From Fistulifera solaris (taxonomy: Eukaryota): a DNA stretch of 64,000 nucleotides. The stretch covers positions 1,922,001 to 1,986,000 of the forward strand of contig AP026164.1 in the NCBI GenBank assembly GCA_030295235.1, written 5' to 3'. Positions 8,037 to 35,300 of this stretch are shown piece by piece; position 1 is the stretch's first letter; each line of letters begins with the position of its first letter. The position numbers were made by a program, and so were the translations under genes. The notes beneath the pieces are model-generated. The model made no database searches, had not been told where the DNA came from, and worked only from the letters and a program-made list of their open reading frames with translations.

Positions 8037-10373
8037 TCATTTATTTTTTTCTTTTCCAGCAGTCATGGAACCGCCTTGCAAAAGTGGTCCCATGGTCTGC
8101 TTCAGAAGATTGCTGTCAAGCTGCCAGCATGTTGTTGTGGAGAGAGAAACAATGGTATTCATGTATTTTCCCTTTCCAGAAAAGATCTCGTCACCAAAGT
8201 GGCTGCCGGCCTTGAGATTGCTTCGCCTTGTCTCGCCGTTCGACGACATGTGCACCGAGTAGCAAGTACCGCTCTGGATTACGAACATGCTGTCTCCTGG
8301 TTTTCCTTGCTCGCAAATATTTTCACCGCGACCAAAGGTGATTTCATCCATGATTGCGGCAAGCTTGTTGATGCCGTCCGAATCCAAATACTGGAAGTAT
8401 GGAATTTCACCGAGAACTTTCTTCAGCTCCTTGCGATGATCTTGTGCTTGCATTAAGACTTGACGAAAGGCGGCACGATGCAGTGCCCACAAGTGGCCGT
8501 CCGTTTGGGCCACAATCGAAGCGGAACGAGGCGCTGAGTACATGAGAGCCAGTTCTCCGAAAGCAGGATGTGCGTGCCTTTCACGGGATCCTTCATAGAC
8601 GTGCACGATGTGACCTCCCTCACCCGTGGCATCTTCCTCTCCATCCGGTACAATGCGCACCTCAAAGCGACCTTCATCAATTATGTAAAAACGGTCTCCT
8701 GTGGTACCTTGTCGGATAACCCAAGACCCTGCCTTGACTTTGACGGATTCCATGCAGGCAAAAATCATTTCACGTTGTTCGTCATTAATATTTCGGAACA
8801 TGATAGAGGCTTTAATAGCATCAGCAATGCGAGCTTTTTTCTTCAGCTGTCTTTTCGGTTGCGTGTTTTTCCAGTCAAAATCAGCATCTTCGGCGTCTTC
8901 TTTTCCACGCATCGATTTGCCCATCTCTCGGAGTTTTTGAATTTCTTTGGACTTCTCCTTTGAGACATTCTTGCGGACGGGGCGTAAGCCTTCTGTTGTC
9001 ATGACCATATTTTCGACCGTATCTTCTAGCTCACCCACTTCAGATTCTGACGGCTCGTCTCTCGCACTAGAACGCAAGTCTGTAGACACTCCGTCAATAA
9101 AGATACAAATCATGGTGATATCATCCGTTCGTGATTCATATTGCAACCACAACTCATAGGCTTCAGCTACAACCGCACGGCATGCCTCCAACGGATCTTG
9201 AAACTTCGCGCAGATATCAACAACACTCTGATTGGTCAAGAACTCAAAGACACCATCACTCGCTAGAACAATAATCTTGTCATCTGGCGTGATTTCGCGC
9301 GTGAGCATCTCTGGTTCAGCAAAAACGCCTAGTTCCTCGGCCATCGCATCTCCCAAAGAACGTGTGAAAGCAGTTCCCGGATAGTCTCCCGTGGGGTGCC
9401 ACACACGCGGGGGGTCGCCACCTTCATCCAACTCTTCACCGAGCTCGAAATCTTCGTTCTCCGATGCATCCACAATTGGTTCAAGTCCTTCCAACTGGTC
9501 TAAGGACAAGATTCTCGCACCAGTCGCTCGGATACGTGCACGCTCGTCCTTTCGATATGGTGTTTGATCTCGACTGAGGGGAAGTGCCTTGAGGGCAGGA
9601 CGACCATTCTTACCCTTCGATTCTTGTCCGAGCACAGCACGGCTGTCGCCGACGTTGGATATGGTAATGCGATTGCGTCGACCATGCATGTACAGGGACA
9701 CAGCCGTCGTCCCTGATAGAGAATCGTCAATGGTAGGGTTACGATGTAGACCTTTGTTGGTCTCTACGTGGGCACGAAGAAGAGATGTCTGTACGGCTTC
9801 TTTCGTTAACTCTTGAGTACCTGCATGTTTGCGGGCTTTTTCTAGATGTGCCGACACTTGTTTGTATAGATTCTTCTTGGTGTAGATGGCACAACCGTCA
9901 CCTGTAGCACCATGGCCATCAAACACTCCAAAGAACGCATCTTGCTTTCCGGGTGTCAAAGACTCCTCTACACAGTAAGCATCTTGATTCGCTTTCATTG
10001 GATCATCTGGATAGTGGCCACGCTGACTGAGGTAGGCGTAACGCATTCGAACACCATTCAGTTCCACCTTACGAGATTCCTTTATGGCATCGATTCGATC
10101 ACGAGCTCGGTTGACTGGTGTCGCAGTAGAAGGAAGTTTCGATTTTGGTTCTTCTGGTTTCGCGGGGGAAGGTGGAGGCTGCAGTTTCGGCGGCGGCTGA
10201 GCTTGTTTCGGTTGAGTAGGTTTTGATTTGCTATGATTATCGTATTCTTGTGACAACTGGTTAACATTCGCCTTTCCAACCGCTGAAAGAGTGCTCATCC
10301 GCATTTTACCTTCATCGTGATCGAGGAGTCTCTGTGAGTCTCCGGTCGCGGCTTTGGAAGATCCACAACCCAT
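8037..10373 (-). CDS. Protein phosphatase 2C fused to two cyclic-nucleotide-binding domains, N-myristoylated
   Basis: MGCGSS start. PP2C motifs NQDAY, FGVFDGHG, SGTTA, NVGDSR, FTRSLGD, LASDGVFE and DDIT. cNMP domain with FGELALMYSAPRSASI, then a degenerate second domain. Confidence 0.92.
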   Translation of the reverse strand: MGCGSSKAATGDSQRLLDHDEGKMRMSTLSAVGKANVNQLSQEYDNHSKSKPTQPKQAQPPPKLQPPPSPAKPEEPKSKLPSTATPVNRARDRIDAIKESRKVELNGVRMRYAYLSQRGHYPDDPMKANQDAYCVEESLTPGKQDAFFGVFDGHGATGDGCAIYTKKNLYKQVSAHLEKARKHAGTQELTKEAVQTSLLRAHVETNKGLHRNPTIDDSLSGTTAVSLYMHGRRNRITISNVGDSRAVLGQESKGKNGRPALKALPLSRDQTPYRKDERARIRATGARILSLDQLEGLEPIVDASENEDFELGEELDEGGDPPRVWHPTGDYPGTAFTRSLGDAMAEELGVFAEPEMLTREITPDDKIIVLASDGVFEFLTNQSVVDICAKFQDPLEACRAVVAEAYELWLQYESRTDDITMICIFIDGVSTDLRSSARDEPSESEVGELEDTVENMVMTTEGLRPVRKNVSKEKSKEIQKLREMGKSMRGKEDAEDADFDWKNTQPKRQLKKKARIADAIKASIMFRNINDEQREMIFACMESVKVKAGSWVIRQGTTGDRFYIIDEGRFEVRIVPDGEEDATGEGGHIVHVYEGSRERHAHPAFGELALMYSAPRSASIVAQTDGHLWALHRAAFRQVLMQAQDHRKELKKVLGEIPYFQYLDSDGINKLAAIMDEITFGRGENICEQGKPGDSMFVIQSGTCYSVHMSSNGETRRSNLKAGSHFGDEIFSGKGKYMNTIVSLSTTTCWQLDSNLLKQTMGPLLQGGSMTAGKEKNK

Positions 10374-10775
10374 CGTCCGTTGTTATTCTAAAAGTAAAGC
10401 TTCAGACGTAGGCAGATTCTTATTTTCGTACCAATTGAAGCTCATTCAGCAATTGCAAAGCAATTATCCGAAAGACAAAACTCACTCGATAGAGAAGCCG
10501 AGGGTGCACCAAAGGTAACCTCGTCGTCTTCGCCTTGTCTTCGCTACCAGACCAGGGTACCAGTACCAGGGTATCTGCTACTAGTATCTGCTCTCGAACT
10601 GCATTCGCCCTTGCAGTCATAGTCATTTGGCATTTGGCATCAATGTCGAAACGAGTTCAAGTGCTTTCCGTGAGATAGTGGGCATGGTTTTCAGACATTT
10701 TCCACAATTTTGGGCCAGCTTTTTCGGCGACCAAAAGAACGAGCGATGAACAGACCAAATCTTCACGACCGACGA

Positions 10776-10959
10776 ACAGCGAATCCGGTCACGCTACGGT
10801 TGACGGATGTACGGCCGTTACGGATGAGCCGTCGTACCTCGCGTTAGCAGTCACAACATGCAACACATGGTGGTCATCTCCATGATTAGAAGGTGTAACG
10901 TAATTCATCTATTGCATGCCTATATTTCATTCTATTGCTGCCGTAATAGGATTAACTGT
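10776..10959 (+). repeat. 5' LTR (184 bp)
   Basis: Direct repeat of 16928-17113; differs by one 2-bp indel and one substitution. Imperfect terminal inverted repeat ACAGcgAATCC...GGATTaaCTGT. Confidence 0.96.
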
Positions 10960-10973
10960 GTTTATCAGACCCA
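10960..10973 (+). other. Putative primer-binding site
   Basis: GTTTATCAGACCCA lies directly after the 5' LTR, the expected PBS position. The priming tRNA is uncertain. Confidence 0.5.
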
Positions 10974-11195
10974 TACAGCTTTGATTCAGGTCGGAAGGAG
11001 TTCGATTTGAACAACAACAGCAGAAGACAAGTTGACGATTGCTGCTGCGGAGACATTTTCGTTTTTGCAAGCAATTTTACTCTACGTTCAATCTGTACTA
11101 CTACTCTTCGAGTCACAGTACATCACGAGCGGAAAACGCTCAATCTCTTGCAATTTCTCTTTGTCCTGTTTTAAAAGAAGAAGTGGTCTCTCATC

Positions 11196-12600
11196 ATGGC
11201 TTCATGGAACAACCTCTTGGAGACTCGATTGGGTATTAATGCCGCAACCAGGGCTGAACTTGCATGGAATAACATTGCGAACATGGCTGATTTGTTAGCA
11301 ATGGAGGAGGACACAATTCGCGCAAACAATTTCTTCAATTTTGAAGTATCCTCATCCAAACAGGCCAGCGAATGTGCGGGTGCACCCAACACCTAAGACT
11401 GTTGAAGACTTAAAGATTGTGAGAAAGTGGGGCGATTCTACAGACTCGGATGGGTGTTGAAAATCCGAATCCTGCACATCTCACAGTTGCAGAATTGAGC
11501 AACACTTTCGGCGTCGTGTGGCGGAATTGAAGGCATATGCAGCGTCCATGAAGGATCAAGATGTGCAGAAGCCGAAGTTGAAAAAAGATGTCTGAGTGGG
11601 TCAAGTTTTGGGAAGCTGTGCAAACTTACTTTGGTAGCATTCGAGGTGCAGCAGAAATTCCGTTGGACTATGTTTTCCGTGATAAGGAAGAGGTCACACC
11701 AGCAGAACTCAATGCAGCATACCCGACCTTTGATGCACGCTTTCACCATTGTACCGTACTTTCTGGGGATCATTATCAAGCTGATAACTTGGGAGTTTGG
11801 AATGAATTCAAGGCTTTGGTGCAAGATGGGCCCGGATGGACTTACATCAAGCAGTTTGATACCCAAAAGGATGGAAGAAGGGCTATCCTTACCTTAAAAG
11901 GACAGACTGACACTGCCAATGGAAGATTGAACCGTAAGACCAAAGCTTACAATGACATTGCGGACGCGAGTGTACGTAGGACCTCGACGTGACTATACCT
12001 TCGATCACTACATCACTGCGCACTTGCAGGCTCACAACGAACTTTCTTACTGTGGCGAACCTGTTCCTGAGTCGGAAAAAGGTGCAAGATTTCTTGAACG
12101 GGATCACGTGTGATGTCTTGTCTCAAGCAAAGCTGCATGTCTACGGGAACAACGAGCTGATGGAAGACTTCGATGCAACCCAGAAGTATTTTTCCACTGT
12201 GAACTCGAACAATCGCTTGTCTAGTTCTCAGAGTAAGAAGAAAGGTCGTCAGGTCGCAGGAATGCAGACCGCAGGTGGTGATGCAAAGACGTATTCAGCA
12301 GCTGAATGGAAGAAGCTGTCCGTTGAGGTCAAAGGCGGTAACTGGCAGCCGAAGCGCTTTCCACGCTTTGACGGAAAGTCAGAAGGCAGACGTGAAAACC
12401 GCACGGGCTGCAAAAGAAGAAAAACAAGAAGCAACAGAAGAACGCATAAAGCGGCCGCAGCTGCTAAAGCAGCAGCAGCTAAGGCCAATGATAGCAGTAG
12501 TGCCACTTCGGATGAAGAAGTTCCAATGAAAAATGCCAGAGAACAGTTTGGTCGTGCGGCACACAAGGCAAAGAAGAGCAAGGGTAACCCCAGTCTCTGA
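11196..12600 (+). CDS. gag: Retrotransposon Gag (frameshifted in this assembly)
   Basis: Fragments with IPLDYVFR, QKDGRRA, KKVQDFLNGI, YSAAEWKKLS and C-terminal NAREQFGR. Ends at TGA 12598-12600. Start position approximate. Confidence 0.8.
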
Positions 12601-15600
12601 CTAGGGTCGCTCCGACACATTCATTGTGTCGAACGGCACGTCTATAGGATGGATGTCCTGGACGATGCTGGCTCTTTTGATCGATGTGAGCTCGATAGCC
12701 ATGCGGATACGGTCGTTGCTGGACGGAATATGGTTTTACTTGAAGCTAGTGGGGAAACGGTACAAGTCTCTCCGTACAGCCCTGAGTATCAACCATTGTC
12801 CGACATTCCAATTGCCACATGTGCTACTGCTTACGACAATCCTGAAACTGGCGAAGTTATTCTTTTGATTTTTGGACAGGCGTTGTATTTTGGGGACCGG
12901 TTAGCTACGAGTCTGTTATCTCCGAACCAGATCCGTGACTTTGGTCATGTCGTGGAAGACAGTCCGACTCAGTATGTTCCCGAATCACGACACTCTATCA
13001 TTTTGCTCTCCTGAGCAACCAGAACTTGTCATTTCTCTTTCTATGAACGGTGTTATTTCAGGCTTTACTTCGCCCTACCAACTGACACCGAGTTACGTAA
13101 TGCATCTCGTATCTATGTGACGTCGGAGGACGAGTGGGATCCTTCATCCTCACGTTTTCAAGAGCGAGCAGGCGGCTAAAGATGTGGACTTTCTTTACCC
13201 AACATACCCTGTTCGTCGTAACATATCAGCACTGGTGATTGCTGACAACCCGGCGATATGACTTTGACCCTTTGCATTCCGGCCGGGGACATGGTGGACG
13301 GTGGACTCCAAGAACGGGGACTTCATTGTTGGCGGATTGGCAAAAGGTCTACTATTTTCAGACATTTGTGGTTTCTGTCATGAACGGTATCAAGATTCCG
13401 GGGACTGGTCTGACACGAGACAGGTTGCGGCGTTTCAGAAAGAAGCACCAAAGCCGGCATTGTCGCCAGTTGTGTTGGGTAAGCGATGGGGAATTGGCAA
13501 CGAAGTCGCCTCTAATACCATCAGAACCACAACACAGAAAGGAATTCGGAAAGTGGTACATCCAGTTCAACGACGAATGAAATCACAACCGTACCTCAGG
13601 CATCCAACGCTAAGAGGAAGATGGTATTCAGATACTGTTTTCTTCAAGGATAAAGGCTTGGGTGGAGAAACTTGTGCTCAGTTGACTACCAACGGAAAAG
13701 GTTACGGTCGGTTCTGGCCGATGAAGTCAAAGCGTCTTGCAAGTCATGGATTGGTGAATCTGGTCCAGGAGGATGGGATACCGGAGAAGCTGATTACTGA
13801 CAACTCCAGGGAACAAGGAGCTAGTGGAACCGGGAACACCGAGTGGGAGAAGGTGGTGTCTCGTTATCACATCAATCATACCTTCACGCAGCCATTCTCC
13901 TGGTGGCAGAACCGAGCTGAATCTGAAGTGCGAGAAATCAAACGTGGGATTCGGAAGTGGACGACAAAGAAACGTTCGCCCACGACGGCTCTGGCCGTAC
14001 CTCGGCGACTTGGTCACGCTGCATTCGATGTCTTACAGCTTTGGGCATTCCATCATTGCAAGGGCGGACACCTTTTGAGCACGTTAAGGGCTACACACCC
14101 GATATCAGTACCTATGCTCAGCATGAGTGGTATGACTGGGTGTGGTATCTGGACGAAGATGGCGATAATCATCTAGGTCGTTGGTTAGGGCCAGCTGGAG
14201 AATACGGATCTGGTGATTGTTACTGGATTCTCCCAAGGTCGTGTCAACCGATTGTGAGATCCACGGTGTGGGCGGTGGATGCCCAGGACTTCGGAACCGA
14301 TGCGATGAAGGCTAGAGTCAATGAACTGACCGCTATCATTGAACGAAAGATCGGGGGACACCGCTGAACTCGGCGAAGAGTTGCTACCAGACGTTTCAAT
14401 GCCTGCTGATCTATTTGACGTGGATGCGGATGAACAGCCAGAGCCAGAGGAACCTCGTCCAGATTTGGATGACTATACTCCGGAGGCGTACGATCACTAC
14501 ATTAACTCAGAGATTCAACTCCTAGTCGGTGGTGAGCTGAGGCATGGTGTCGTCAAGCCGGAGGGTTAAAAACGATGACGGCATACCCGATAGGTTCAGC
14601 GAATGAGAATCCAATCCTAGACACACGATATTACGAGGTTGAGTTTCCGGATGGGACAGTTGACTCGTACAGTGCTAACATTATTGCTGAGAATCTTTAC
14701 GCTCAGATTGATGATGAGGGTCGGATGTTTGCGGTATTATCGGAAATTGTCGATCATCGGAAGAACGGTCATGCAGTGTCCAAGGAGAACGGTTTTCTGC
14801 CTGACGGAACTGGCAGCAATCCTAGTCGGAAGATTACTACCAGGGGCTGGGAACTGCTGTGCGAATGGAAAGATGGAAGCTCAGATTGGGTCCGTTTGTC
14901 GGATATCAAGGAGTCCCATCCAGTACAAGTTGGCGCTTTTATGCAGTTGGAGCCAAGATCGACGACGAACCGGCGTTCTAGCCTGGTGGGTTCCCCGTGA
15001 TTCGGAAAAAGGATCGGATTATTGCAAAGACCAAGAACAGATACTGGAAGAGAACTCACAAGTATGGAGTTCGATTGCCAAAGACTGTGGCGGAAGCCTT
15101 ACAGATAGATCGGCGATACCGGTACGGATTACTGGCGGAAAGCGATTGAGAAAGAGATGAAGAATGTTTCGATTGCCTTCGAATTCAATGCCGAGGATTT
15201 GATTCCTGTGGGTCATAAGGAGATCAAGTGTCACATGATATTCGACGTCAAGATCACTTTAGTCCGCAAGGCACGGTTTGTGGCAGACGGTCACAAAGTC
15301 AATGAACCGAAGGAGAATACGTTTTCATCTGTCGTGGTCGAGAGATTCCGTAAGACTGTTCTTTCTGCTTGCTGCTTTGAATAACTTGAAAGTGTTGTCT
15401 GCCGATATTCAGAACGCTTATCTAACGGCCGATCAAAGAGAAATACTGGTATAGGACAGGGTTGGAATTTGGCTCGAATCAGGGTCGCCCGGCTAAGATT
15501 GTTCGTGCTTTGTATGGACTTCCGTCAGCCGGATTTCGATTCCGTTCACACCTTGCATCTAAGTTACGGGAACTTGGCTATACTTCGTGTAAGGCTGATC

Positions 15601-16758
15601 CTGACATCTGGATGCGGCCAGCCCTGAAGCCGGATGGCACCAAGTAATACGAGTATTTGTTGGCGACGTGGATGATCTTGTAGGACAAAGTATCGATCCT
15701 GATAAGATGTTCGGGCGAAATTGCACAAATCTTTCAGTTTAAAGACGGGAAAGCGGAAGAGCCGGAACTATATCTTGGAGCCTGACGTTAAAAAATGGCA
15801 TATTGATGATGCTGAAGACCCAACAAAGGACCGTTGGGCACTCGTCGGAAAAGTATACCAAAAAGGCTATCAGCGAGGTCGAGACTGAGCTAAACAAAGT
15901 TCATTTAGATCTACCAAAGAAAGCGACTCCATTTAGTGCAGGATACCGTCCGAATTGGATGTTTCACCAGAATTGGACAATCGGCGTCAGAATTATTTCC
16001 AGGGGTTGATTGGCGTGTTACGATGGTTATGCGAGTTGGGACGCTTGGATATCATTGTACCGGTCTCGATGTTGTCGAGGTACCTAGCGCAAGCTAGAGA
16101 AGGTCATCTTGATCAAGTGTTTCACATATTTGCTTACTTGAAATCTCACGACCGTTCTACTTTTGGTTTTTGATGATACCAGGCCTTTCATTGATGACAG
16201 ACGGTTCATAAGAAGGGACTGGAGCGAAGTTTTATCCGGATGCAGCTGAAGTGATTCCACCAGACAAACCGGGAGGAGCGTGGTGAGCCTGTGCTTATTT
16301 CATGTTTCTGCGATGCGGATCATGCCGGTTGTAGGGATACTCGACGTTCACATAGTGGCGTGCTTGTTTTTGTAAACAGGGCTCCTATTCTTTGGTTCTC
16401 AAAGCGCCAGACAACTGTTGAGACTTCTACATTTGGAAGTGAGATAGTAGCTTTGAAAATTGCCGTCGAGATGATTGAAGGTTTGCGTTATAAACTCCCG
16501 GGATGATGGGAGTACCGATTGAAGGGTCAACTTCTGTTTTCTGCGATAATGATTCCGTGGTCAAGAATACGACACACCCTGAGAGTCCTTTGAAAAAGAA
16601 AGCTAATGCGGTGGCGTATCACAAAGTTCGTGAAGCGATTGCTGCTGGTATTATTCGATTGACGAAGGAAGATGGCGAGACGAATTTGAGTGACATTCTC
16701 ACCAAGTTGTTGGGAGGTCCGGCGTCTTCGTGATCTCAGCTCTCGGGTGCTGTGGTGA
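12601..16758 (+). CDS. pol: Retrotransposon Pol (protease, integrase, chromo-like domain, RT, RNase H), broken by many indels
   Basis: Consecutive ORF fragments from 12649 to 16733 carry the copia Pol motifs in order. The protease frame continues directly from the gag frame. Confidence 0.9.
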
Positions 16759-16927
16759 TGTTATTTCTTGTGCTGGTTGTTGCCGATGGTGTCGACAGTG
16801 AGAGAGTTTCATTTATTTTACATATTTTACATGTCATGGGTTAAAACAACCCGCCCCCCATTTGAAAATGAAGGGGCCTCTGCAGTCTGATCATGTGAGA
16901 ACCAGTTCGCGACATGCTCACGGGGAC

Positions 16928-17113
16928 ACAGCGAATCCGGTCACGCTACGGTTGACGGATGTACGGCCGTTACGGATGAGCCGTCGTACCTCGCGTTAGC
17001 GCAGTCACAACATGCAACACATGGTGGTCATCTCCATGATTAGAAGGTGTAACGTAATTCATCTATTGCATGCCTCTATTTCATTCTATTGCTGCCGTAA
17101 TAGGATTAACTGT
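16928..17113 (+). repeat. 3' LTR (186 bp)
   Basis: Direct repeat of the 5' LTR, followed by ACGA. Confidence 0.96.
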
Positions 17114-17282
17114 ACGACCCATGAACCAGATGATGAGGGATATTCAAGGGTTCCCTAATAAAGGAAACAATACCGTATACCTTATCGACTGTTTGACTAC
17201 CGTACCGGGACTGTCATTACGGTTCCATGGTACCGGTACCGTACTTTATTCATTCCTCCTGCTGTTACCAGTACTGTACCCC

Positions 17283-17367: not shown

Positions 17368-17519
17368 CCACCTGCGACCTGCGATCGAAAATCGAAACCA
17401 CAGGAAACCATTTACGCGATTGGGTGCAATTTTTTCAAGCGAACGCTTTTTTGCGCAGATCGTCGTCGTAATAACAAGCACCCAGATAAACTTTTGGAAT
17501 CTCTGCCGGCAACAAAAGC

Positions 17520-18446
17520 ATGGGTAGTTCCACGAGTCAAAGCTTCAAGTCAGCGTACGAACGGAGCGCCCTCCACGCTGGATCTTGGTACGACGACGAT
17601 CCGAGAAGGTTGAGAACTACATTAGATGAGAACATAAGACAAGCTGAAATCGAATCATTTGACAACGTCCGCGCTTTAATTGTTCCACATGCAGGTTATC
17701 GATACTCCGGGCCTACGGCTGCATTCTCTTACAAGATCCTGCATCAGTGCTTGAGTCGCCAGGCGATTCGAACCATTTTGGTCTTGCACCCCGCACATCA
17801 TGTTTACTTGCGAGGATGCGCTGTGTCGGGGGCAAGTAGCCTACAAACTCCTCTGGGAGATTTAGTGGTGGACGAGGATCTTAGACAGGAAATTCTTTTA
17901 CTGAATGATCCGGCTTTTAGTGTCATGGAGAAAAGCGTAGATGAAGAAGAACACTCGGGTGAGATGCAGTATCCGTACTTGGCACACGTTATTGCCGGTC
18001 GAGACATCAAAGTCTTGCCCATTATGTGTGGTTCTTTAGAAACTCCACAAGAGAAGCTATTCGGGGAAATTCTGAGGGCAATCATTGCTCGCCCGGAAGT
18101 TTGCACAATCATATCATCTGATTTTTGTCACTGGGGAAGTCGTTTCTCGTATCAGCCGACGGGCAACTCAATACCCATTCACCAGTTTATCGAGCAAATG
18201 GACAGAAAAGGTATGGATTTGATTCAATTGAAAGACCCTGGGGCATTTGCTTCGTATTTGAAAGAAACACGAAACACGATTTGTGGACGGCATGCTATTG
18301 CGGTATGGTTAAATGCTGTCTCCGCTTCTACCAACAACAATCTCGAAATATGTTTTGTCAATTATGCACAGAGTTCAGCTGTCACTTCTCGGAAGGAGTC
18401 CAGCGTTAGCTACGCTGCAGCAGTGGCGTTTATGAAAGAAAATTAA
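17520..18446 (+). CDS. MEMO1: MEMO1 / AmmeMemoRadiSam protein B family
   Basis: HAGSWY, IVPHAGYRYSG, EEEHSGEMQ, ISSDFCHWGSRF, NTICGRH and SSVSYA motifs. Confidence 0.95.
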   Translation: MGSSTSQSFKSAYERSALHAGSWYDDDPRRLRTTLDENIRQAEIESFDNVRALIVPHAGYRYSGPTAAFSYKILHQCLSRQAIRTILVLHPAHHVYLRGCAVSGASSLQTPLGDLVVDEDLRQEILLLNDPAFSVMEKSVDEEEHSGEMQYPYLAHVIAGRDIKVLPIMCGSLETPQEKLFGEILRAIIARPEVCTIISSDFCHWGSRFSYQPTGNSIPIHQFIEQMDRKGMDLIQLKDPGAFASYLKETRNTICGRHAIAVWLNAVSASTNNNLEICFVNYAQSSAVTSRKESSVSYAAAVAFMKEN

Positions 18447-23322: not shown

Positions 23323-26300
23323 ATGAAAGTCTTCAAAGCAAACATCAGCATTCTTTTAATCGCACTCGTTCCCATTGTGGCCGCGGAAGCTTCCTCCAAG
23401 GAAGCCGCGAACGCTCAATCTACTCAGGAAGGTTGGTTCGCGAAGTTTTTGGAGAAACTCCCGCATGTTTACATGAGGAAGGAGATTTCGTTCTTTTCCC
23501 ACTTCGGCGAGAAGTTGAACCGCAACAAGAAGCCAGGTCGCTTGGATTGTGACTGGGATGACCCAGTGAAGTCCAAGCACTGTCCTCCTGTTGCTGCTTC
23601 GCCTTTCGTTGGAGGTGGTTCTGCCCCGGCGTTGAAGGGCGCACCTGGAGAGGAGGTCAGTTGTCTTAAGACTCCGAACCACGAGGACTGTCGCATATTG
23701 CAAGCTGCTACTAACGTAGGAGGTTCGTCTACGGCGAGCAACGTGGTTTTGAGTGACCCCGAGCCGGAGCCGAGTGTCCAGAAGGTCAACGTGACAAAGG
23801 TGAAGGCCGAGGAAGCGGAAGTCAAGGAGGAGAAAGTCAAGGAGAAGAAAGTGGAGGAAGACGATGGGGATGCCCCCAATTCGTTCGTCACCGAGTTCCC
23901 CATCGCGACTGTCGCCACTGAGGCTCCTACTCGTGATGACTGTTACGGTAACATGTTTGACGGGCGTTTCTGTGCGTCTTCCATGCCTTCCGTGACAGAG
24001 GAACCCACGAAGGAACCCAAGGTGAATCCGTCGACTGGTAAGCTCAACACTCCTACGAAGATGGAGCTCAACACGGATAGCGGTGGAGGGCGGGTTCCGT
24101 CGACGAAGGATTCGAAGACCGACTCGGTCGGTGCGAAGGTTCCGCCGGGTCAGCTGGACAAGGATACTGGCGGGGCTAAGGTTCCAACGTACACGGTCCC
24201 GAAACCTAGCGCCAGTCCTAGTGGCCAAGTGACGGAGAAAGGGGGCGCTAAGTTACCGACTTTTGCCGTCCCTGAGCCCAGTGCCAGTCCCAGTTCCAGC
24301 CCGACTGTTGAGGTTAAGGAAGACGGTGGTGCCAAGGTGCCGACGTTCACCGTTACCGAGCCGAGTGCCAGTCCTAGCGAGGAGGTTGTCAAAGAAGGTG
24401 GTGCCAAGTTGCCGACTTTTACCGTCTCTGAACCAAGTGCCAGTCCTAGCGGCCTTGTTCAGGAGAAGGGCGGTGCCAAGTTGCCGACTTTTACTGTCTC
24501 TGAACCAAGTGCCAGTCCCAGCGGCCTTGTTCAGGAGAAGGGCGGTGCCAAGTTGCCGACTTTTACTGTCTCTGAACCAAGTGCCAGTCCCAGCGGCCAG
24601 GTTCAGGAGAAGGGCGGTGCCAAGTTGCCGACTTTTACTGTCTCTGAACCCAGCTCCAGTCCAAGTGGCCAGGTTCAGGAGAAGGGCGGTGCCAAGTTGC
24701 CGACTTTTACTGTCTCTGAACCCAGCTCCAGTCCAAGTGGCAATGAGAAGGAAGATGGTGGTGCGAAGTTGCCGACTTTTGCTGCTTCTGAACCCAGCGC
24801 TAGTCCGAGTGCCAGTCCTACCGGTGACGTTAATGAAGAAGGTGGTGCGAAGCTACCGACTTTTGTTGCTTCTGAACCGAGTGCCAGTCCAAGTGGAAAG
24901 GAGAAGGAAGAAGGTGGTGCGAAGCTACCGACTTTTGTTGCTTCTGAACCGAGTGCCAGTCCAAGTGGAAAGGAGAAGGAAGAAGGTGGTGCGAAGCTAC
25001 CGACTTTTGCCGCAACTGAACCGAGCGCCAGTCCAAGTGGAAAGGAGAAGGAAGAAGGTGGTGCGAAGCTACCGACTTTTGCCGCAACTGAACCGAGCGC
25101 CAGTCCAAGTGGAAAGGAGAAGGAAGAAGGTGGTGCGAAGCTACCGACTTTTGCCGCAACTGAACCGAGCGCCAGTCCAAGTGGAAAGGAGAAGGAAGAA
25201 GGTGGTGCGAAGCTACCGACTTTTGCCGCAACTGAACCGAGTGCCAGTCCCATTTCCTCTCCTACCTCAAGTCCTACTTCCGCTCCCACTCGCTGTGAAG
25301 ATCGCGTTGCTGGTCCACTCGAGCGCCAAGCTGGAAGCGAGGTTTGCGTGGAGTCCGATGGAGCTGTCACGATTGTTTCCCGCACCCAAGAGTCCGTTTC
25401 ATTCACTGTCAACCAGCAGTTTACTGAGACGTCCGCGACGTGGGTCTCGACACAGTACGTTGGTGTCGACGGATTCCCAGTTTGTGATATTCAACAAAAT
25501 CTTCCCGTTGGACAGTCCGTGACGTATACGGCTATGTGCGATGACAACTTGTGGGCGTCGATCAATATCTACGTTCACGATGAGTCTTTGAGCGGTGCTG
25601 CTTTCGTCCCTAGTGAGTGTTCGGCGGACTTGTCTACAGGTGGTACTTGCGCGTACACCATTCAGTTGCCCTGTGACTGTACTGGTGTTACTCTCCCGAC
25701 ACCACCACCCACATTCGCTCCAACCGCGGCACCTTCTGAAGAACCCACGGGCAAGCCCAGTCCTTACCCCACAGCTGTTCCCACGAGTGTTCCGAGTTCG
25801 AGCCCATCTGCAGGTCCTATCGGTGAACCGTCGTCTTCCCCTAGTGCCAAACCTAGCTCCGAGCCCTCGGTTAAGCCTTCCGGTGTTCCCACCACTTCTC
25901 CAAGTGTTGTTCCCTCCGGAGGGCCTAGCCCAGGTCCTACTCACGGTCCGACTTCCGGGCCGACATCAGTCCCCAGTTCTCAGCCGAGTCCGGAACCTTC
26001 AGACGAACCCACTGGCAAACCTAGTCCTTACCCGACCAACAAGCCAGTGATCCCTGAAGGATCGCCCACTCCTTTGCCCAGTGCATCGCCATCCCGAGCT
26101 CCTGTTACCCCAAGTGCTCAGCCCACTTCCTTGCCTACGGACCTCCCTTCAGACTCTCAAACGGACCTCCCTTCAGACTCTCAAACGGTACCTCCTACTG
26201 GTGGACCGTCAGGCGTGCCAACAACATCGCCCTCTGGAGGACCAACTGGTGAGCCAAGCGCTTCGCCGACGACGATTCCTTCGAACGAGCCCACTGCGAA

Positions 26301-29300
26301 GCCCAGTTCTTACCCGACGGCTAGCCCTTCGAGCGCGCCCGTGGCCAGTCCCAGCGCTTCACCTTCTGGTTCCCCCTCGGCATCGCCAACGGACTCCGAC
26401 ATCCCCGATGTCATAACGATGCCTCCGGTTCCTGTACCATCAAATGTTCCTACTGACCAGCCTTCGGCGTCTCCCTCCGGCAAGCCTACCACAATCCCTA
26501 GTCAAAATCCCAGTGGAATTCCATCCGTACCTCCAACTGCCAGTCCAACTGGCGCACCTACTGGAAGCCCAACCGGTGTTCCCACCGGTATCCCTTCGCC
26601 TACTCCATCCGGAAATCCCTCTGATTCCCCAAGCGCGGCTCCGACATCTTTGCCGTCGGGTAGCCCCAGCAAAGGACCAACTGCCGAACCAAGCTCATCT
26701 CCTTCAGCCAGCCCGACTGCTTTCCCGTCAAGCACACCAACAGGCCAGCCGTCTGTGAAAGCAAGTGAGAATCCATCGTCAGGTCCCACTCTGTCGCCAA
26801 CAGGATCTCCAAGTGGCAACCCGACAAACGTACCTTCAGAAAACCCCTCAATTAGCGGCTCTGCTACTCCTTCGGTCGAACATAGTCTCACTCCGACGAT
26901 AGACGAAAGTGCTAACCCAACGGTTGTAGCATCAGAGTCTCCCAGCGGAAAACCGACAAGCGGCCCAACAGCCAGTCCCAGCCGTAGTCCTTCTTCAGTA
27001 CCTACATCTGGTCCTTCCTCGAACCCTAGCGGAACACCCAGCGATTCGCCAAGTGCCGTTCCCACCAGTCTGCCTTCTGCCGACCCTTCAGTTTCGCCTT
27101 CGAAAACACCGACCGGTTCCCCCAGTGTCGTGCCAAGTCGTACACCATCTGGTGCACCGTCCCTTGTTCCAAGCCAAGAACCTTCATTAGGGCCTTCAGG
27201 ACAACCTTCTGGTACCCCTAGCATGTTGCCTACTAAAACACCAAGTGCTCTGCCAAGTATGATGCCCACTCCATCCCCCACCGGACGGCCCAGCGGTGTA
27301 CCCAGCAGCGAGCCGACGTCACCGCCCAGTTTGACAGTAAGTCAAGTACCCAGTGTGGCTCCTTCTGCCGGTCCAAGCTCCGAGCCTTCAAATTCACCTT
27401 CTGGTACACCAACCGGAAGTCCAAGCGGTGAACCGTCTTCAGGTCCAACTTCCCCACCTACTGCTGAACCGAGTTCTAACCCAAGTTCAGTCCCTAGTAT
27501 CACTCCTTCGGCGGTGCCATCTTCGGTTCCTACCGTCACGCCCAGTTCTGGACCAAGCTCGGTTCCTAGCGCTACACCTACGACGACTCCAAGTGGAGAG
27601 CCAAGCAGTTCTCCGTCGGGCACTCCCAGCGTTATCCCATCTGCCGGACCAACAGCAAGTCCGTCAGTCCAGCCTTCGGGTTCCCCTAGCGAGACTCCCA
27701 CATTCAAACCAACTGCTGAAGGCGAGAAGTCTCCAAGTGAAGTTCCAAGTTCGTCTCCGACCGACAGTCCGGCTCCTAGTGGAACCCCGACTACTTCTCC
27801 CAGTGGATCCCCGTCTGGTGTACCGACTGGTTCACCAACGTCGGGCCCATCGGGCACGCCAAGTGTCGTTCCGAGCTCGACGCCTTCTTCTTCGCCCAGC
27901 TCTATTCCCAGTACTGGACCGAGCAGCGAACCGAGTGTCACACCTAGTGCCGTCCCGTCTTCTACACCCAGTATTGTGCCATCCGGATCGCCAAGTGCTG
28001 TTCCGAGCATCACACCGAGCGTAACTCCGTCCGCTGTACCAACTTCAGTTCCAAGTGGCACGCCGTCGGGAACTCCGAGCTCTACACCGAGCAGCACTCC
28101 CAGTGCCGTGCCGTCTTCTACTCCTAGCGGAGTTCCAAGCACCACACCGAGTGTGACTCCCAGCTTCTCACCAAGTGACTCACCGTCATCAGTTCCCTCT
28201 ACTAGCCCGAGTTCGGATCCGAGCGTTGCGCCTAGCGGAACACCGACCACTTCCCAAGTTCTAACCCCAGTTCGGTGCCAACGTCAGTTCCGAGCGGAAC
28301 CCCCAGTTCGTCGCCCAGCGCTATCCCTTCATCGGTGCCAACGACGACTCCAAGCGGAACGCCGAGTTCGACACCCTCGAGCTTGCCCAGTATCACTCCT
28401 TCGGCGGTGCCATCTTCGGTTCCTACCGTCACGCCCAGTTCTGGACCAAGCTCGGTTCCTAGCGCTACACCTACGACGACTCCAAGTGGAGAGCCCAGCA
28501 GTTCTCCGTCGGGCACTCCCAGCGTTATCCCATCTGCCGGACCAACAGCAAGTCCGTCAGTGCAGCCTTCGGGTTCCCCTAGCGAGACTCCCACATTCAA
28601 ACCAACTGCTGAAGGCGAGAAGTCTCCAAGTGAAGTTCCAAGTTCGTCTCCGACCGACAGTCCGGCTCCTAGTGGAACCCCGACTACTTCTCCCAGTGGA
28701 TCCCCGTCTGGTGTACCGACTGGTTCACCAACGTCGGGCCCATCGGGCACGCCAAGTGTCGTTCCGAGCTCGACGCCTTCTTCTTCGCCCAGCTCTATTC
28801 CCAGTGCTGGACCGAGCAGCGAACCGAGTGTCACACCTAGTGCCGTCCCGTCTTCTACACCCAGTATTGTGCCATCCGGATCGCCAAGTGCTGTTCCGAG
28901 CATCACACCGAGCGTAACTCCGTCCGCTGTACCAACTTCAGTTCCAAGTGGCACGCCGTCGGGAACTCCGAGCTCTACACCGAGCAGCACTCCCAGTGCC
29001 GTGCCGTCTTCTACTCCTAGCGGAGTTCCAAGCACCACACCGAGTGTGACTCCCAGCTTCTCACCTAGTGTTGTTCCAAGCTACTCCCCAAGTGTTACGC
29101 CATCATCAGTTCCCTCTGCTAGCCCGAGTTCAGATCCGAGCGTTGCGCCTAGCGGAACACCGACCACTTCCCCAAGTTCTAACCCCAGTTCGGTGCCAAC
29201 GTCAGTTCCGAGCGGAACCCCCAGTTCGTCGCCCAGCGCTATCCCTTCATCGGTGCCAACGACGACTCCAAGCGGAACGCCGAGTTCGACACCCTCGAGC

Positions 29301-32300
29301 TTGCCCAGTATCACTCCTTCGGCGGTGCCATCTTCGGTTCCTACCGTCACGCCCAGTTCTGGACCAAGCTCGGTTCCTAGCGCTACACCTACGACGACTC
29401 CAAGTGGAGAGCCAAGCAGTTCTCCGTCGGGCACTCCCAGCGTTATCCCATCTGCCGGACCAACAGCAAGTCCGTCAGTGCAGCCTTCGGGTTCCCCTAG
29501 CGAGACTCCCACATTCAAACCAACTGCTGAAGGCGAGAAGTCTCCAAGTGAAGTTCCAAGTTCGTCTCCGACCGACAGTCCGGCTCCTAGTGGAACCCCG
29601 ACTACTTCTCCCAGTGGATCCCCGTCTGGTGTACCGACTGGTTCACCAACGTCGGGCCCATCGGGCACGCCAAGTGTCGTTCCGAGCTCGACGCCTTCTT
29701 CTTCGCCCAGCTCTATTCCCAGTACTGGACCGAGCAGCGAACCGAGTGTCACACCTAGTGCCGTCCCGTCTTCTACACCCAGTATTGTGCCATCCGGATC
29801 GCCAAGTGCTGTTCCGAGCATCACACCGAGCGTAACTCCGTCCGCTGTACCAACTTCAGTTCCAAGTGGCACGCCGTCGGGAACTCCGAGCTCTACACCG
29901 AGCAGCACTCCCAGTGCCGTGCCGTCTTCTACTCCTAGCGGAGTTCCAAGCACCACACCGAGTGTGACTCCCAGCTTCTCACCAAGTGACTCACCGTCAT
30001 CAGTTCCCTCTACTAGCCCGAGTTCGGATCCGAGCGTTGCGCCTAGCGGAACACCGACCACTTCCCCAAGTTCTAACCCCAGTTCGGTGCCAACGTCAGT
30101 TCCGAGCGGAACCCCCAGTTCGTCGCCCAGCGCTATCCCTTCATCGGTGCCAACGACGACTCCAAGCGGAACGCCGAGTTCGACACCCTCGAGCTTGCCC
30201 AGTATCACTCCTTCGGCGGTGCCATCTTCGGTTCCTACCGTCACGCCCAGTTCTGGACCAAGCTCGGTTCCTAGCGCTACACCTACGACGACTCCAAGTG
30301 GAGAGCCCAGCAGTTCTCCGTCGGGCACTCCCAGCGTTATCCCATCTGCCGGACCAACAGCAAGTCCGTCAGTGCAGCCCACTGGCTCACCGTCGGTGAG
30401 TCCAAGTTCAGTTCCGTCTTCCCTGCCTACATTCCTCTCGGAAAGCATTTGCGTGCAAGAAGCCAGACTAGACAGTAACGTCACCGCGCCGAATGGAAGT
30501 GGCATGTTTACCGAAAATCCGATCAGTCTCGTCTCGCAACGCGGCTCGACTGTTTCTTTTGTTGTGAATCAGAACTGGGGTACAGATTCAATTCATCAAA
30601 TCACAGTCATGTATAAATCTGTACATGATGGAATGATTTGCTCGGAAAATTGGGGAGTTTCTTCCGAGACTTCGGAGTACACCGCACGCTGTGTTGATGG
30701 AGTTACTGAAATCGCCGTTTTTGTTAGCGACAATTCTTTCTCAGGAATTCCGGACATTTCTACTCAGCTTCCTGAAATATGCAATGTGCATTCCCCGTGG
30801 GTTTCCAGGTTTCAATGTTCGTCTTTACTCTCCCGTGCGACACGTCATTGGAAGACTTCTGTGTAGTGTTGTGCCCTGACAGCGAAATGCCCAGTGTTCA
30901 GCCAAGTTCCATTCCTTCCGCGTCTCCCACTGCTCAAGGTGAAAAGGCTCCCAGCGAGGTTCCAAGCACAACGCCTACGGAGAGCCCTGCTCCAAGTGGT
31001 TCGCCGACTGTTACCCCCAGTGGGTCCCCGTCTGGTTTGCCTACTGTTTCCCCGTCTTCTGAACCGTCTGGTGTGCCAAGTGTTACCCCCACTTCGAGCC
31101 CCTCTGGTCTACCAAGTTCTATTCCCACTACTGGACCCAGCGGTGCTCCTAGTGTCACACCTAGCGCTATCCCGTCTTCTCCACCCAGTATTGTGCCGTC
31201 TGGAGCTCCCAGCTCGTCACCAAGCGCTGTCCCTAGCTCCGCCCCCAGTATTGTACCATCAGCCGTCCCAAGCCCAGGTCCCAGCTCATCTCCAAGTGCT
31301 AGTCCGTCGGTGTCGCCCTCCACAGTCCCTACAACGACACCCACCGTTTCTCCTAGTGCATCACCTTCGTCGTCTCCCAGTGTTTCGCCAAGTGGAATCC
31401 CCTCCTCTAGCCCAAGCGGGGTACCGAGTGGATCTCCAAGCTCGGAGCCCAGTTCTTCGCCGTCTTCAGCACCCAGCTCTGGTCCTTCCAGCTCACCAAG
31501 TGGGTCGCCGAGTTCCAGCCCAAGTTCTGTTCCAAGCTCAACCCCCTCTGGTGTTCCAGAGTGGAGTTCCGAGCTCGACACCCAGCGCGATGCCAAGCTC
31601 GAATCCCAGTGGATCGCCAAGCTCTACACCGTCTAGTATTCCCAGCTCGACTCCAAGCAGTAGTCCCAGTGTCACTCCTTCGGCGGTGCCATCTTCGGTT
31701 CCTACCGTCACACCTAGTTCTGGACCAAGCTCGGTTCCTAGCGCTACACCTACGACGACTCCAAGTGGAGAGCCCAGCAGTTCTCCGTCGGGCACTCCCA
31801 GCGTTATCCCATCTGCCGGACCAACAGCAAGTCCGTCAGTGCAGCCTTCGGGTTCCCCTAGCGAGACTCCCACATTCAAACCAACTGCTGAAGGCGAGAA
31901 GTCTCCAAGTGAAGTTCCAAGTTCGTCTCCGACCGACAGTCCGGCTCCTAGTGGAACCCCGACTACTTCTCCCAGTGGATCCCCGTCTGGTGTACCGACT
32001 GGTTCACCAACGTCGGGCCCATCGGGCACGCCAAGTGTCGTTCCGAGCTCGACGCCTTCTTCTTCGCCCAGCTCTATTCCCAGTGCTGGACCGAGCAGCG
32101 AACCGAGTGTCACACCTAGTGCCGTCCCGTCTTCTACACCCAGTATTGTGCCATCCGGATCGCCAAGTGCTGTTCCGAGCATCACACCGAGCGTAACTCC
32201 GTCCGCTGTACCAACAGCCGTACCGAGCTCGAGACCCAGCGCATCTCCAAGTGCTTCTCCGTCGACATCGCCCTCTACAACTCCTTCGTTGTCTCCCAGT

Positions 32301-35300
32301 GTTTCGCCAAGTGGAATCCCCTCCTCTAGCCCAAGCGGGGTACCGAGTGGATCTCCAAGCTCGGAGCCCAGTTCTTCGCCGTCTTCAGCACCCAGCTCTG
32401 GTCCTTCCAGCTCACCAAGTGGGTCGCCGAGTTCCAGCCCAAGTTCTGTTCCAAGCTCAACCCCCTCTGGTGTTCCAAGTGGAGTTCCGAGCTCGACACC
32501 CAGCGCGATGCCAAGCTCGAATCCCAGTGGATCGCCAAGCTCTACACCGTCTAGTATTCCCAGCTCGACTCCAAGCTCTAGTCCAAGCGGTGAACCCAGT
32601 TCTGCTCCGAGCGAACAACCCAGCATCACTCCCAGTGAATTTCCAAGCGCGTACCCAAGTGAGGTTCCTAGTGTTGAGCCCTCGGGCGCCCCGTCGATCA
32701 AGATTTGCGAGGAGTATGAGCGAATTACCTTCAACGAGGATGGTTACGGTAATCCAGTTAGCGCAGGATCATTCGTCTCGCTTCAATGGAAAAATCACGG
32801 ATTCAGACTCTACGCCAAGGAATTATCTGAAGGTACAGGCGGATACATGGAAAATGGCTGGCCTAGGCTATTCGACACGCTCCAGCCTGGAAATCCTGGA
32901 GTTGGTACTCCCGGACTTGCTGGTGATTTTGGCAATGTCTTGATTGTGCAACATCAGAACCCTAAAGGTCCTAAAAACTGGCAGGCAAATGAAAATGGAG
33001 GGGTGATTGTCTTTGACTTCGCTTTGGCCCCTCGAGGAGAGATTGAGGATATTGGGTTGCACAACGTCGTCAAGGATGTCAAGATTCGCGTCACGGACGC
33101 AAAGGGCTTGACCACCGATTTTATTGTTCCTGCTCAAGGAGAAAACAAATCAGTTACCCAGAGACTCAATGCATTTGATGTGAGCAAAATCGAAGTTTTC
33201 ATGGAGGGACCAAGTGCAGTTACAGCGCTTGGAATATGCTATGACCTCGATGGAGCTCCTAGCACCAAGGTTCCCGAAAATTTATGGCCCACTGAACAGC
33301 CAAGTGTCCAACCGAGTCAGAGCCCCGCTCCAAGCTCTCAACCCTCTAGAAGTTCTCAGCCGAGTGCCTCCCCTTCTGCTAGTCCCACTGCGGAAGGCGA
33401 GAAGTCTCCTAGTGAAGTTCCAAGTTCTTCCCCGACAGACAGTCCGGCACCAAGCAGTTCTCCAAGCACTACACCCAGTACTAAACCAAGCACGTCTCCA
33501 AGTGCTTCCCCGAGTGGATCTCCGAGCTCTGGCCCAAGTCAGCACCCTAGTTCGGAACCTAGTTCTACTCCAAGTGTAACACCGAGTGCTGCACCTTCTT
33601 CGGTCCCATCGGTGGCACCGAGTGGAGAACCTAGCTCTAGCCCGAGTTCTGCTCCTAGCTCCAGTCCAAGCTCAACACCAAGTTCTGCTCCTAGTTCCTT
33701 GCCAAGTTCCACACCGAGCTCAAGTCCAAGCGGAACCCCAAGCTCTTCGCCCAGCTCTACTCCCTCTTCGAGCCCAAGCTCTACGCCGAGCTCGATGCCT
33801 AGCTCTACTCCAAGCAGTTCACCGAGCGCGGCACCGAGCTCTTCGCCGAGTTCCAGCCCAAGTTCGACACCCAGCTCCAGCCCGAGTTCCAGTCCTAGTT
33901 CGGCTCCCAGCTCTGAGCCAAGCTCGAGTCCGAGTGTAACTCCTTCTTCGACTCCTAGTGGCGAGCCTTCATCTGCACCCAGCGTTGAGCCGAGTGGCGC
34001 TCCGAGTGTGACACCAAGCTCTTCACCAAGCAGTGTTCCGAGCGTGACACCAAGCGCTTCTCCTTCTTCGACTCCTTCGTCGACTCCAAGTGTCAGCCCG
34101 TCGTCTGTACCCAGTGCTTCTCCTTCAACTACTCCAAGTGGAAGTCCAAGCATTGCGCCGTCGGCTACACCGAGTCAGGAACCCAGCTCTTCGCCGAGTG
34201 CTTCACCATCTGTGTCTCCTAGCGCGGGTCCGTCGTCGAGTCCTAGTGTCAGTCCGTCTGCTGCGCCAAGCGTTTCTCCGAGTGCTGTTCCAACACCTGA
34301 AGGCGAGAAGGCTCCGAGTGAAGTGCCCAGTTCTTCTCCCACAGATAGTCCTGCACCAAGTGGAGCTCCGAGCTCGAAACCTAGTGGCAGTCCCAGCTCT
34401 TCACCAAGCATCAGCCCCAGCATTGAGCCAAGCTCATCTCCAAGCGTCTCGCCGAGCAGCAAACCCAGTTCTACTCCCAGTTCAAACCCCAGCGAGGTGC
34501 CAAGTACCAACCCAAGCGTAAGCCCAAGCAGCAGCCCAAGCTTTTCACCGAGCTCCGTTCCTAGTAATATGCCAAGCTCCAGTCCAAGTTCGTCTCCAAG
34601 CTCTACACCTAGTGTCGTACCGAGCTCTTCCCCGAGTTCAACGCCGAGCACAAGCCCTAGTGCGGTCCCCAGTACCTCACCGAGTTCCACACCGAGCTCA
34701 AGTCCAAGCGGAACCCCAAGCTCTTCGCCCAGCTCTACTCCCTCTTCGAGCCCAAGCTCTACGCCGAGCTCGATGCCTAGCTCTACTCCAAGCAGTTCAC
34801 CGAGCGCGGCACCGAGCTCTTCGCCGAGTTCCAGCCCAAGTTCGACACCCAGCTCCAGCCCGAGTTCCAGTCCTAGTTCGGCTCCCAGCTCTGAGCCAAG
34901 CTCGAGTCCGAGTGTAACTCCTTCTTCGACTCCTAGTGGCGAGCCTTCATCTGCACCCAGCGTTGAGCCGAGTGGCGCTCCGAGTGTGACACCAAGCTCT
35001 TCACCAAGCAGTGTTCCGAGCGTGACACCAAGCGCTTCTCCTTCTTCGACTCCTTCGTCGACTCCAAGTGTCAGCCCGTCGTCTGTACCCAGTGCTTCTC
35101 CTTCAACTACTCCAAGTGGAAGTCCAAGCATTGCGCCGTCGGCTACACCGAGTCAGGAACCCAGCTCTTCGCCGAGTGCTACACCATCTGTGTCTCCTAG
35201 CTCGGGTCCGTCGTCGAGTCCTAGTGTCAGTCCGTCTGCTGCGCCAAGCGTTTCTCCGAGTGCTGTTCCAACACCTGAAGGCGAGAAGGCTCCGAGTGAA

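Follow-up and report, generated by a model that had tools for sequence, protein, structure and literature searches.

Probable UGA readthrough at the gag-pol junction of a copia-type retrotransposon from Fistulifera solaris

How is Pol made when a stop codon closes gag directly ahead of it? The question is raised by a 6.3-kb long terminal repeat (LTR) element in a stretch of 64,000 nucleotides from Fistulifera solaris (contig AP026164.1, positions 1,922,001 to 1,986,000 of the forward strand; this whole stretch is hereafter the window, and positions are counted from its first letter), in which gag and pol lie in one reading frame and are separated by a single TGA. We consider it very probable that Pol is made by programmed UGA readthrough to a Gag-Pol fusion, as the original prediction, made from the letters of the window, had proposed. 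That proposal is supported by the frame that gag shares with pol across related loci, by the near-exclusive use of TGA at the junction, and by coding constraint on the sequence that follows the stop. The junction has the following features.

12598..12600, + strand: in-frame TGA at the end of gag, read from the translation and kept in copies and across families
12601..12604, + strand: CTAG, the 3' context of the stop, identical in 3/3 copies and fitting the UGA-CUAG motif of PMC4132726
12649..12651, + strand: first in-frame ATG after the stop, read as an internal Met, 15 codons ahead of the catalytic Asp
12694..12711, + strand: DSHADT aspartic protease active-site motif, from a predicted model and its structural alignment onto retroviral proteases

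Translation of 12400-13020 (...MKNAREQFGRAAHKAKKSKGNPSL*LGSLRHIHCVERHVYRMDVLDDAGSFDRCELDSHADT...) bore out the original reading that gag, whose tail directly before the stop reads ...AAHKAKKSKGNPSL, is closed by this TGA, that CTAG comes next, and that the same frame runs on into ELDSHADT. The frame past the stop remains open for 137 codons, to 13014, and the Asp of ELDSHADT (codon 12694-12696) lies 32 codons past the stop. The protease motif is DSH, differing from D[ST]G. The predicted model of the protease domain (predicted local distance difference test score, pLDDT, 79) gave no Foldseek match at E <= 0.001, and the six top rows (of 32) of its structural alignment are retroviral proteases (Z 3.6-4.5), with this Asp aligned onto their catalytic Asp. 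These weak but consistent signs suggest that a retropepsin-like aspartic protease opens pol.

The gag and pol of the window copy are split by many 1-4 base indels; a lone stop in such a fragmented copy proves nothing, and the case therefore rests on copies and relatives. TGA-CTAG is present in 3/3 genome copies (identities 100, 96, and 87%), and the junction is free of indels. The window copy and the C2 copy differ by 58 indels; 52 of these lie no more than 3 bases from a CG dinucleotide (background ~31%), in a test that pools the contexts of both sequences and leans slightly high. The frameshifts differ between copies, neighbouring host open reading frames (ORFs) are intact, and short-read contigs of one public run gave 57 indel rows against the window. 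The indels are probably base-calling errors at methylated CG in the long-read assembly, confined to transposons. The C3 copy (L115, G000:C3:2110600-2118600) has lost most of the 5' part of gag, and its junction is unchanged.

A protease search of the genome for other copia families yielded 35 matches, and the account here covers the 30 loci retrieved from them. In family B the junction reads TGA-CTG, 21 codons ahead of the Asp, and when the middle base of the stop was left free the family pattern occurred in 13 places, 13/13 of them with TGA. An in-frame TGA-CAG is found in L007, while L008 has TGA-CGG at the same place and indels between stop and protease. Among the three loci of family C, an in-frame TGA-CTG is seen in L029 only, where an alternative reading is possible, and no junction stop could be placed in family F (6 loci) or in L019.

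The search was extended to metagenomes, where 527 relatives were confirmed; the counts below cover the best 80 of the 527 and are biased to the query. A scan of IMG/VR returned 38 pattern matches with no relative among them. A fixed rule sorted the 80 loci into 54 with a stop, 6 fused, 19 unclear, and 1 without upstream sequence. In a quick tree on 182 columns, which omits L079, L084, and L091 as too short and whose weak deep forks are not used to order gains and losses, 17 rows form one group (support 89), and this group together with L096 contains all fused loci. Five stop-bearing rows of this single-ORF group, with the stop inside the gag tail (3 TAG in identical rows, 1 TAA, and 1 TGA), were dropped as sporadic nonsense. 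Outside the group there are 49 clean one-stop loci, of which 48 have TGA and 1 has TAG, with C as the next base in 37. When reduced to 35 representatives (one per 80%-identity cluster), 34 have TGA, and C follows in 26, CT in 21. Of 12 genuine pol terminators taken from these loci, by comparison, 4 are TGA and 2 have C next, and among off-frame triplets 53% are TGA, with C after 21% of those. Conservation of TGACTAG itself held for the 3/3 genome copies and not for the relatives, where the exact heptamer occurs in 2/35 representatives and the shared signal is TGA-C, mostly with CT; the commonest next codons are CUG and CUC, not CUA or CGG. Variant junctions in the set include TAG-G in L062, against TGA-G in its sister L077, and TGA-ATG in L060, L073, L091, and L112. 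Overall, these comparisons indicate that the stop is inherited rather than a product of decay, and that the feature is lineage-wide.

The frame of gag was scored as that of the longest upstream ORF in any frame, in 57 loci outside the single-ORF group, 54 of which were scorable; gag lies in the frame of pol in 48/54. The distance from stop to Asp ranges from 23 to 72 codons, and 11/35 representatives lack any in-frame ATG further than 3 codons ahead of the Asp. Between the stop and the first ATG, 13 pairs of loci (302 codons; two loci used twice) differ by 67 synonymous and 34 non-synonymous single changes, and 147 changes fall at third positions vs 114 and 86 at the others. Judged by these changes, the stretch between stop and first AUG appears to evolve like coding sequence. 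Because this coding-type stretch precedes the AUG, and because 11/35 lineages lack a usable AUG, readthrough is preferred over re-initiation and splicing. The residue before the stop is most often Glu (9/38). In one clade (L064, L071, L094, L060, L101, and their kin) a hydrophobic stretch of ~20 residues directly follows the UGA and extends the distance from stop to Asp to 67-72 codons.

The predicted folds around the stop comprise three hairpins.

12587..12607, + strand: small hairpin enclosing the stop, from a predicted fold (z -1.8 alone)
12613..12631, + strand: hairpin of 7 bp separated from the stop by 12 nt, a candidate stimulator of readthrough, from folds of the sequence 3' of the stop
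12634..12670, + strand: longer second hairpin 3' of the stop, from predicted folds, unchanged in 3/3 copies

The stop-enclosing hairpin, to which the original prediction had pointed, is recovered in the predicted fold, but it is weak alone (9/200 shuffles equally good), and its outer pair is lost in the C3 copy, in which the outer A (12587) is changed. From the geometry of the ribosome, pairing around the stop itself would be open when the stop is decoded; stimulation is more likely to come from the hairpin 12 nt downstream, in which the sole change among copies turns a G-C pair into G-U. The wider junction at 12560-12680 folds with z -5.1 (0/200 shuffles as good), 12576-12675 is the best of 156 folding windows across the element (z -5.75), and 60-nt folding windows 3' of the stop give z -2.9 to -5.1. 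The second-best folding window of the element lies in the leader (11056-11155, z -4.9) and is a candidate packaging or dimerisation signal. Across the 35 representatives, folding is on average strongest in segments at the stop (mean z -1.43, -1.20, and -1.00), compared with -0.83 to +0.11 at 12 other offsets. One sister clade has a 10-bp stem beginning 7 nt past the stop in 13 sequences, which were picked after the folds had been seen, with three sequences of a 3-base offset and two fragments left out. One pair of this stem is C-G in 9 sequences and U-A in 4, the U-A rows fall on three branches, and the 3' change replaces Asp with Asn; 91.7% of the cells of the stem pair, vs 25-53% when it is slid. 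This is modest but real evidence for the stem, and it bears on the sister clade only.

Under the proposed mechanism, each element would be expressed from a single genomic mRNA, on which most ribosomes would terminate at the UGA and release Gag, while in a minority a near-cognate tRNA would decode the UGA and the same frame would continue into a Gag-Pol fusion. Such a route would set a high Gag:Pol ratio and carry Pol into the particle. The signal would be UGA followed by C (here CUAG), with hairpins from 12 nt downstream probably helping, as at type II viral sites. The bypass by the ribosome, its rate, the residue inserted, and any stimulation by the hairpins are all steps that we infer.

Several observations weigh against this account. 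The main warning against equating layout with mechanism comes from Tca2 (pCal), a Ty1/copia element of Candida albicans with gag and pol in one frame and a single UGA between them: its 300-nt junction gave 0.3% readthrough in Saccharomyces cerevisiae and acted as a weak promoter, and Pol followed the LTR promoter (PMC2194720). The context of the stop is loose, with CUA or CGG next in 6/35 representatives and no C in 9/35, and in this genome L011-L013 carry TGA-GGA at this position and have indels on the way to the protease. Fisher P values for the representatives against the pol terminators (1e-5, and 1e-3) ignore shared descent and overstate the case, but the pattern extends across proteases no more than 45-61% identical to the query. 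Structure near the stop is not universal, with z < -2 in only 26-31% of representatives, and the covariation in the sister clade amounts to one pair in sequences chosen post hoc. Of 13 further loci beyond the fused group, 7 keep an in-frame TGA-C but are otherwise damaged or run into a contig end, 1 could not be read, and 1 lacks sequence; in the other 4, which are decayed, the TGA that ends gag is off the frame of a broken pol. The stop is dispensable in principle, as 18 related loci and two families of this genome are apparently single-ORF. Examination of other copies and families for a sense codon or another frame mostly found the in-frame stop, with a sense codon, TCA, in two old tandem copies of family B. 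An unchanged 96-nt run at the junction of the C3 copy was not taken as evidence by itself, being one of four runs of at least 94 nt.

Among the alternatives to readthrough, a separate start of Pol, whether it relies on re-initiation at the next codon or the first AUG or on a weak promoter inside the element, would yield free Pol and is unlikely. A start-like codon directly follows the stop in 13/35 representatives (CTG in 10, and ATG, GTG, and ACG in 1 each), whereas the remaining 22/35, with the window (CTA) among them, have none. The ATG of the window, ahead of the Asp by 15 codons, is kept in 4/5 nearest relatives, in one clade a Met is preserved 18-21 codons ahead of the Asp, and a minor promoter was detected in the Tca2 junction (PMC2194720). 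However, the 11/35 representatives noted above lack a usable ATG, and a separate start at the AUG would require neither the frame of gag nor an open, synonymous-biased stretch ahead of it. Furthermore, a Tyr is conserved two residues before the Met encoded at 12649 in the window and its five nearest relatives, with Phe-x-Ile/Val similarly placed in sister lineages. Stop-start re-initiation could apply to some lineages, not to the window.

It is quite improbable that bypass of the UGA is driven by distant RNA elements or an element-encoded factor, a proposal made for Tca2, instead of the local UGA-C and hairpins. The local junction of Tca2 was insufficient in S. cerevisiae (PMC2194720), context and 3' folding vary among our relatives, and the element has a second strong fold in its 5' leader. 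By contrast, the enrichment of C after the stop and the stem with a fixed 7-nt spacer in one clade resemble local signals, and in human cells UGA-CUA by itself yielded 1.5% readthrough (PMC4132726).

Minor splicing that excises the stop and fuses gag with pol is highly improbable. Splicing sets Gag:Pol in Drosophila copia and was weighed as an option for Tca2 (PMC2194720), and the window has a GTAA 14 bases ahead of the stop. Nevertheless, only 2/35 representatives combine a GTRAG donor before the stop with a pyrimidine-YAG acceptor after it, and an intron would keep neither the frame nor the synonymous bias. The 80 contigs of one public run that tile the element showed no joint, although rare splice forms are lost in contigs, and the sequencing runs listed as holding the element include no RNA run.

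The odds are similarly slight that the UGA is decoded as selenocysteine (Sec). In the genome, 6 tRNA-Sec matches exceed the Rfam threshold (G000:C4, C27, C29, and C3), with two tandem pairs, the one match that was read has a UCA anticodon, and the choice of UGA in all but one of the 49 clean stops would fit; on the other hand, no Rfam family, SECIS included, was found in 10700-17200 at E <= 1, a search that a divergent SECIS could escape, the stop lies in a variable linker rather than at a catalytic site, and L062, unlike its sister with TGA, uses TAG. Host-wide reassignment of UGA was rejected, as all three stops terminate long ORFs of the window and Trp is encoded by TGG in them. Finally, the view that the TGA arose by random nonsense mutation or misassembly in a dead copy, with a coincidental context, is next to impossible and already refuted unless the relatives are mis-aligned: the frameshifts of the window copy, the background rate of C after TGA, the TCA of the two family B copies, and the sporadic stops of the single-ORF group speak for it, but the identical stop recurs in all three copies and at the end of gag in dozens of lineages, and the frameshifts vary by copy, cluster at CG, and spare the junction.

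The element that carries this readthrough candidate has the following parts.

10772..10775, + strand: left target-site duplication ACGA, the same four bases flanking both LTR ends
10776..10959, + strand: 5' LTR, 184 bp, with ACAG...CTGT ends, aligned to the 3' LTR; the C2 copy has the same ends
10960..10972, + strand: position of the primer-binding site, a 13-base motif common to other copia families of the genome
11196..12597, + strand: gag-like ORF1, ~467 codons, start codon inferred, fragmented in the assembly, located by tblastn with the ORF1 of a relative
12601..16721, + strand: pol, with protease, integrase-like region, reverse transcriptase, and RNase H-like end, fragmented in the assembly, located by mapping the Pol of a relative
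16928..17113, + strand: 3' LTR, 186 bp, with a short purine tract just upstream, from the LTR alignment
17114..17117, + strand: right target-site duplication ACGA

The LTRs differ by 1 substitution and one 2-base indel, and near-identical LTRs with a 4-base target duplication suggest a young insertion. The 490-aa ORF1 of an intact relative matches 11582-12210 (tblastn, E 9e-29). A relative's Gag model bears a weak resemblance to Retrotran_gag_2 clusters (TM 0.30-0.36), and its nearest structural clusters are from Bacillariophyta, on just 3 and 1 recorded members. No Pfam family was found in gag, protease, or integrase fragments of the window and three relatives. The Pol of an intact relative aligns in order over 12616-16721, with RVT_2 (E 2e-14) in its second half, and RVT_2 is above the cut-off in 3/3 intact relatives, whose Pol maps onto the window at 29-70% identity; together these indicate a copia-type element, in a call that rests on the relatives, as the window fragments scanned alone did not span the reverse transcriptase. 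The integrase family rve was unmatched in the window fragments and three relatives, and PF00665 is listed with PF07727 in 2/43 homologues; a D-D-E-like stretch at 13600-13950 is what we take to be the candidate integrase region. The LTR ends of the window and C2 copies are ACAG...CTGT and not the TG...CA of Ty1/copia elements, which is also absent in CoDi3.2, 4.2, and 4.3 (PMC2806351). Family B has 89-bp LTRs, likewise without TG...CA, whereas TG...CA is present in the L007 family. The C2 copy (L114, G000:C2:998000-1005800) ends in two head-to-tail LTRs, followed by the primer-site motif. This motif has 11 exact matches in the genome, in several families (reversed control 0), and does not start with TGG; no primer tRNA was found in 3/10 loci checked, and the primer may be an internal piece of a tRNA or something other than tRNA.

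The element is flanked by host genes for a PP2C phosphatase fused to cyclic-nucleotide-binding domains (8037-10382, - strand) and a Memo-like protein (17490-18446, + strand). Elsewhere in the window there is a 72-base repeat at 24200-25300, and nested tandem repeats at ~27000-43450, with 12- and 893- to 978-base periods, contain Ser/Pro-rich ORFs of 1,870, 876, and 4,194 codons.

The mechanism and the layout are both known, and it is their lineage-wide use in diatom-type copia elements that appears not to have been spelled out in the open-licence literature searched. On balance we lean, by a narrow measure, toward a wider view in which UGA readthrough would be the default route to Pol in a large diatom-type branch of copia elements, gained or lost repeatedly against single-ORF sisters and driven by UGA-C together with a short hairpin, set at a constant distance from the stop and conserved despite its amino-acid cost. 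If this is true, readthrough would be a main copia strategy in the plankton rather than a yeast oddity, and the first readthrough signal for stramenopile ribosomes would have been defined. It would show how diatom ribosomes handle leaky stops and what sets the Gag:Pol ratio of abundant, stress-induced retrotransposons, in a setting that includes a transformable model, Phaeodactylum. For annotation, the TGA at the end of gag in these elements should not count as a disabling mutation; many of the homologues are Pol-only proteins of 1,320-1,410 aa, as gene callers begin Pol at an internal Met.

Among known systems, the CoDi elements, the Ty1/copia elements of diatoms, resemble the present 6.3-kb one, by description, in being full-length LTR elements with near-identical LTRs and the order protease, integrase (putative here), reverse transcriptase, RNase H (PMC2806351), and membership in CoDi is likely. 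CoDi names are absent from the 10 clusters looked up, which have generic names only. In its main text PMC2806351 makes no mention of the stop, its context, or readthrough (0 matches for 'readthrough' or 'read-through'), and no description of readthrough for diatom copia was found in the open-licence literature, although the supplement of PMC2806351 or Gao et al. 2003 may already record the stop.

The type II readthrough sites of alphaviruses, tobraviruses, and furoviruses consist of UGA followed by CUA or CGG, with a stem 7-12 nt 3' and a 12-nt spacer given for Sindbis-like alphaviruses (PMC3159437), and UGA-CUAG readthrough is established for mammalian genes (PMC4132726). The window resembles them in UGA-CUAG and in a predicted stem after a 12-nt spacer, and the sister clade has a 7-nt spacer; of its relatives, only the 6/35 noted above fit the UGA-CUA/CGG pattern strictly. 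The viral stems enclose loops of ~100-150 nt, whereas the stems here are short, and we see a parallel solution without homology. The gene order is also found in Tj1, Tcry1, and Tosmo1-3, Ty3/gypsy elements of fission yeasts in which gag-TGA-pol lies in frame, is followed by CTA or CTG, and has been read as programmed readthrough (bioRxiv 10.1101/2022.12.06.519325). These also have single-ORF relatives (Tf1 and Tf2) and Glu as the commonest residue before the stop, but they are gypsy elements with a strictly conserved 8-base context, whereas the present elements are of copia type (RVT_2) and have a loose one.

Usual descriptions of copia elements give them a single ORF, splicing, or +1 frameshifting, and Tca2 stands apart as an exception without a solution. 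The original prediction regarded the gag-UGA-pol layout as unusual for copia, a point that did not stand, as Tca2 already has it (PMC2194720). Tca2 shares with the present element its copia type, its one frame, its one UGA, and a predicted structure 3' of the stop; it differs in having a purine-rich 8-nt spacer and a pseudoknot like that of murine leukemia virus, where we find UGA-CU and simple hairpins. The two are likened by layout, not kinship. Whereas Tca2 is one element, the layout described here is common to a broad lineage, and dozens of gag-UGA-pol lineages with natural variants of context and hairpin offer the comparative material that has been missing for Tca2.

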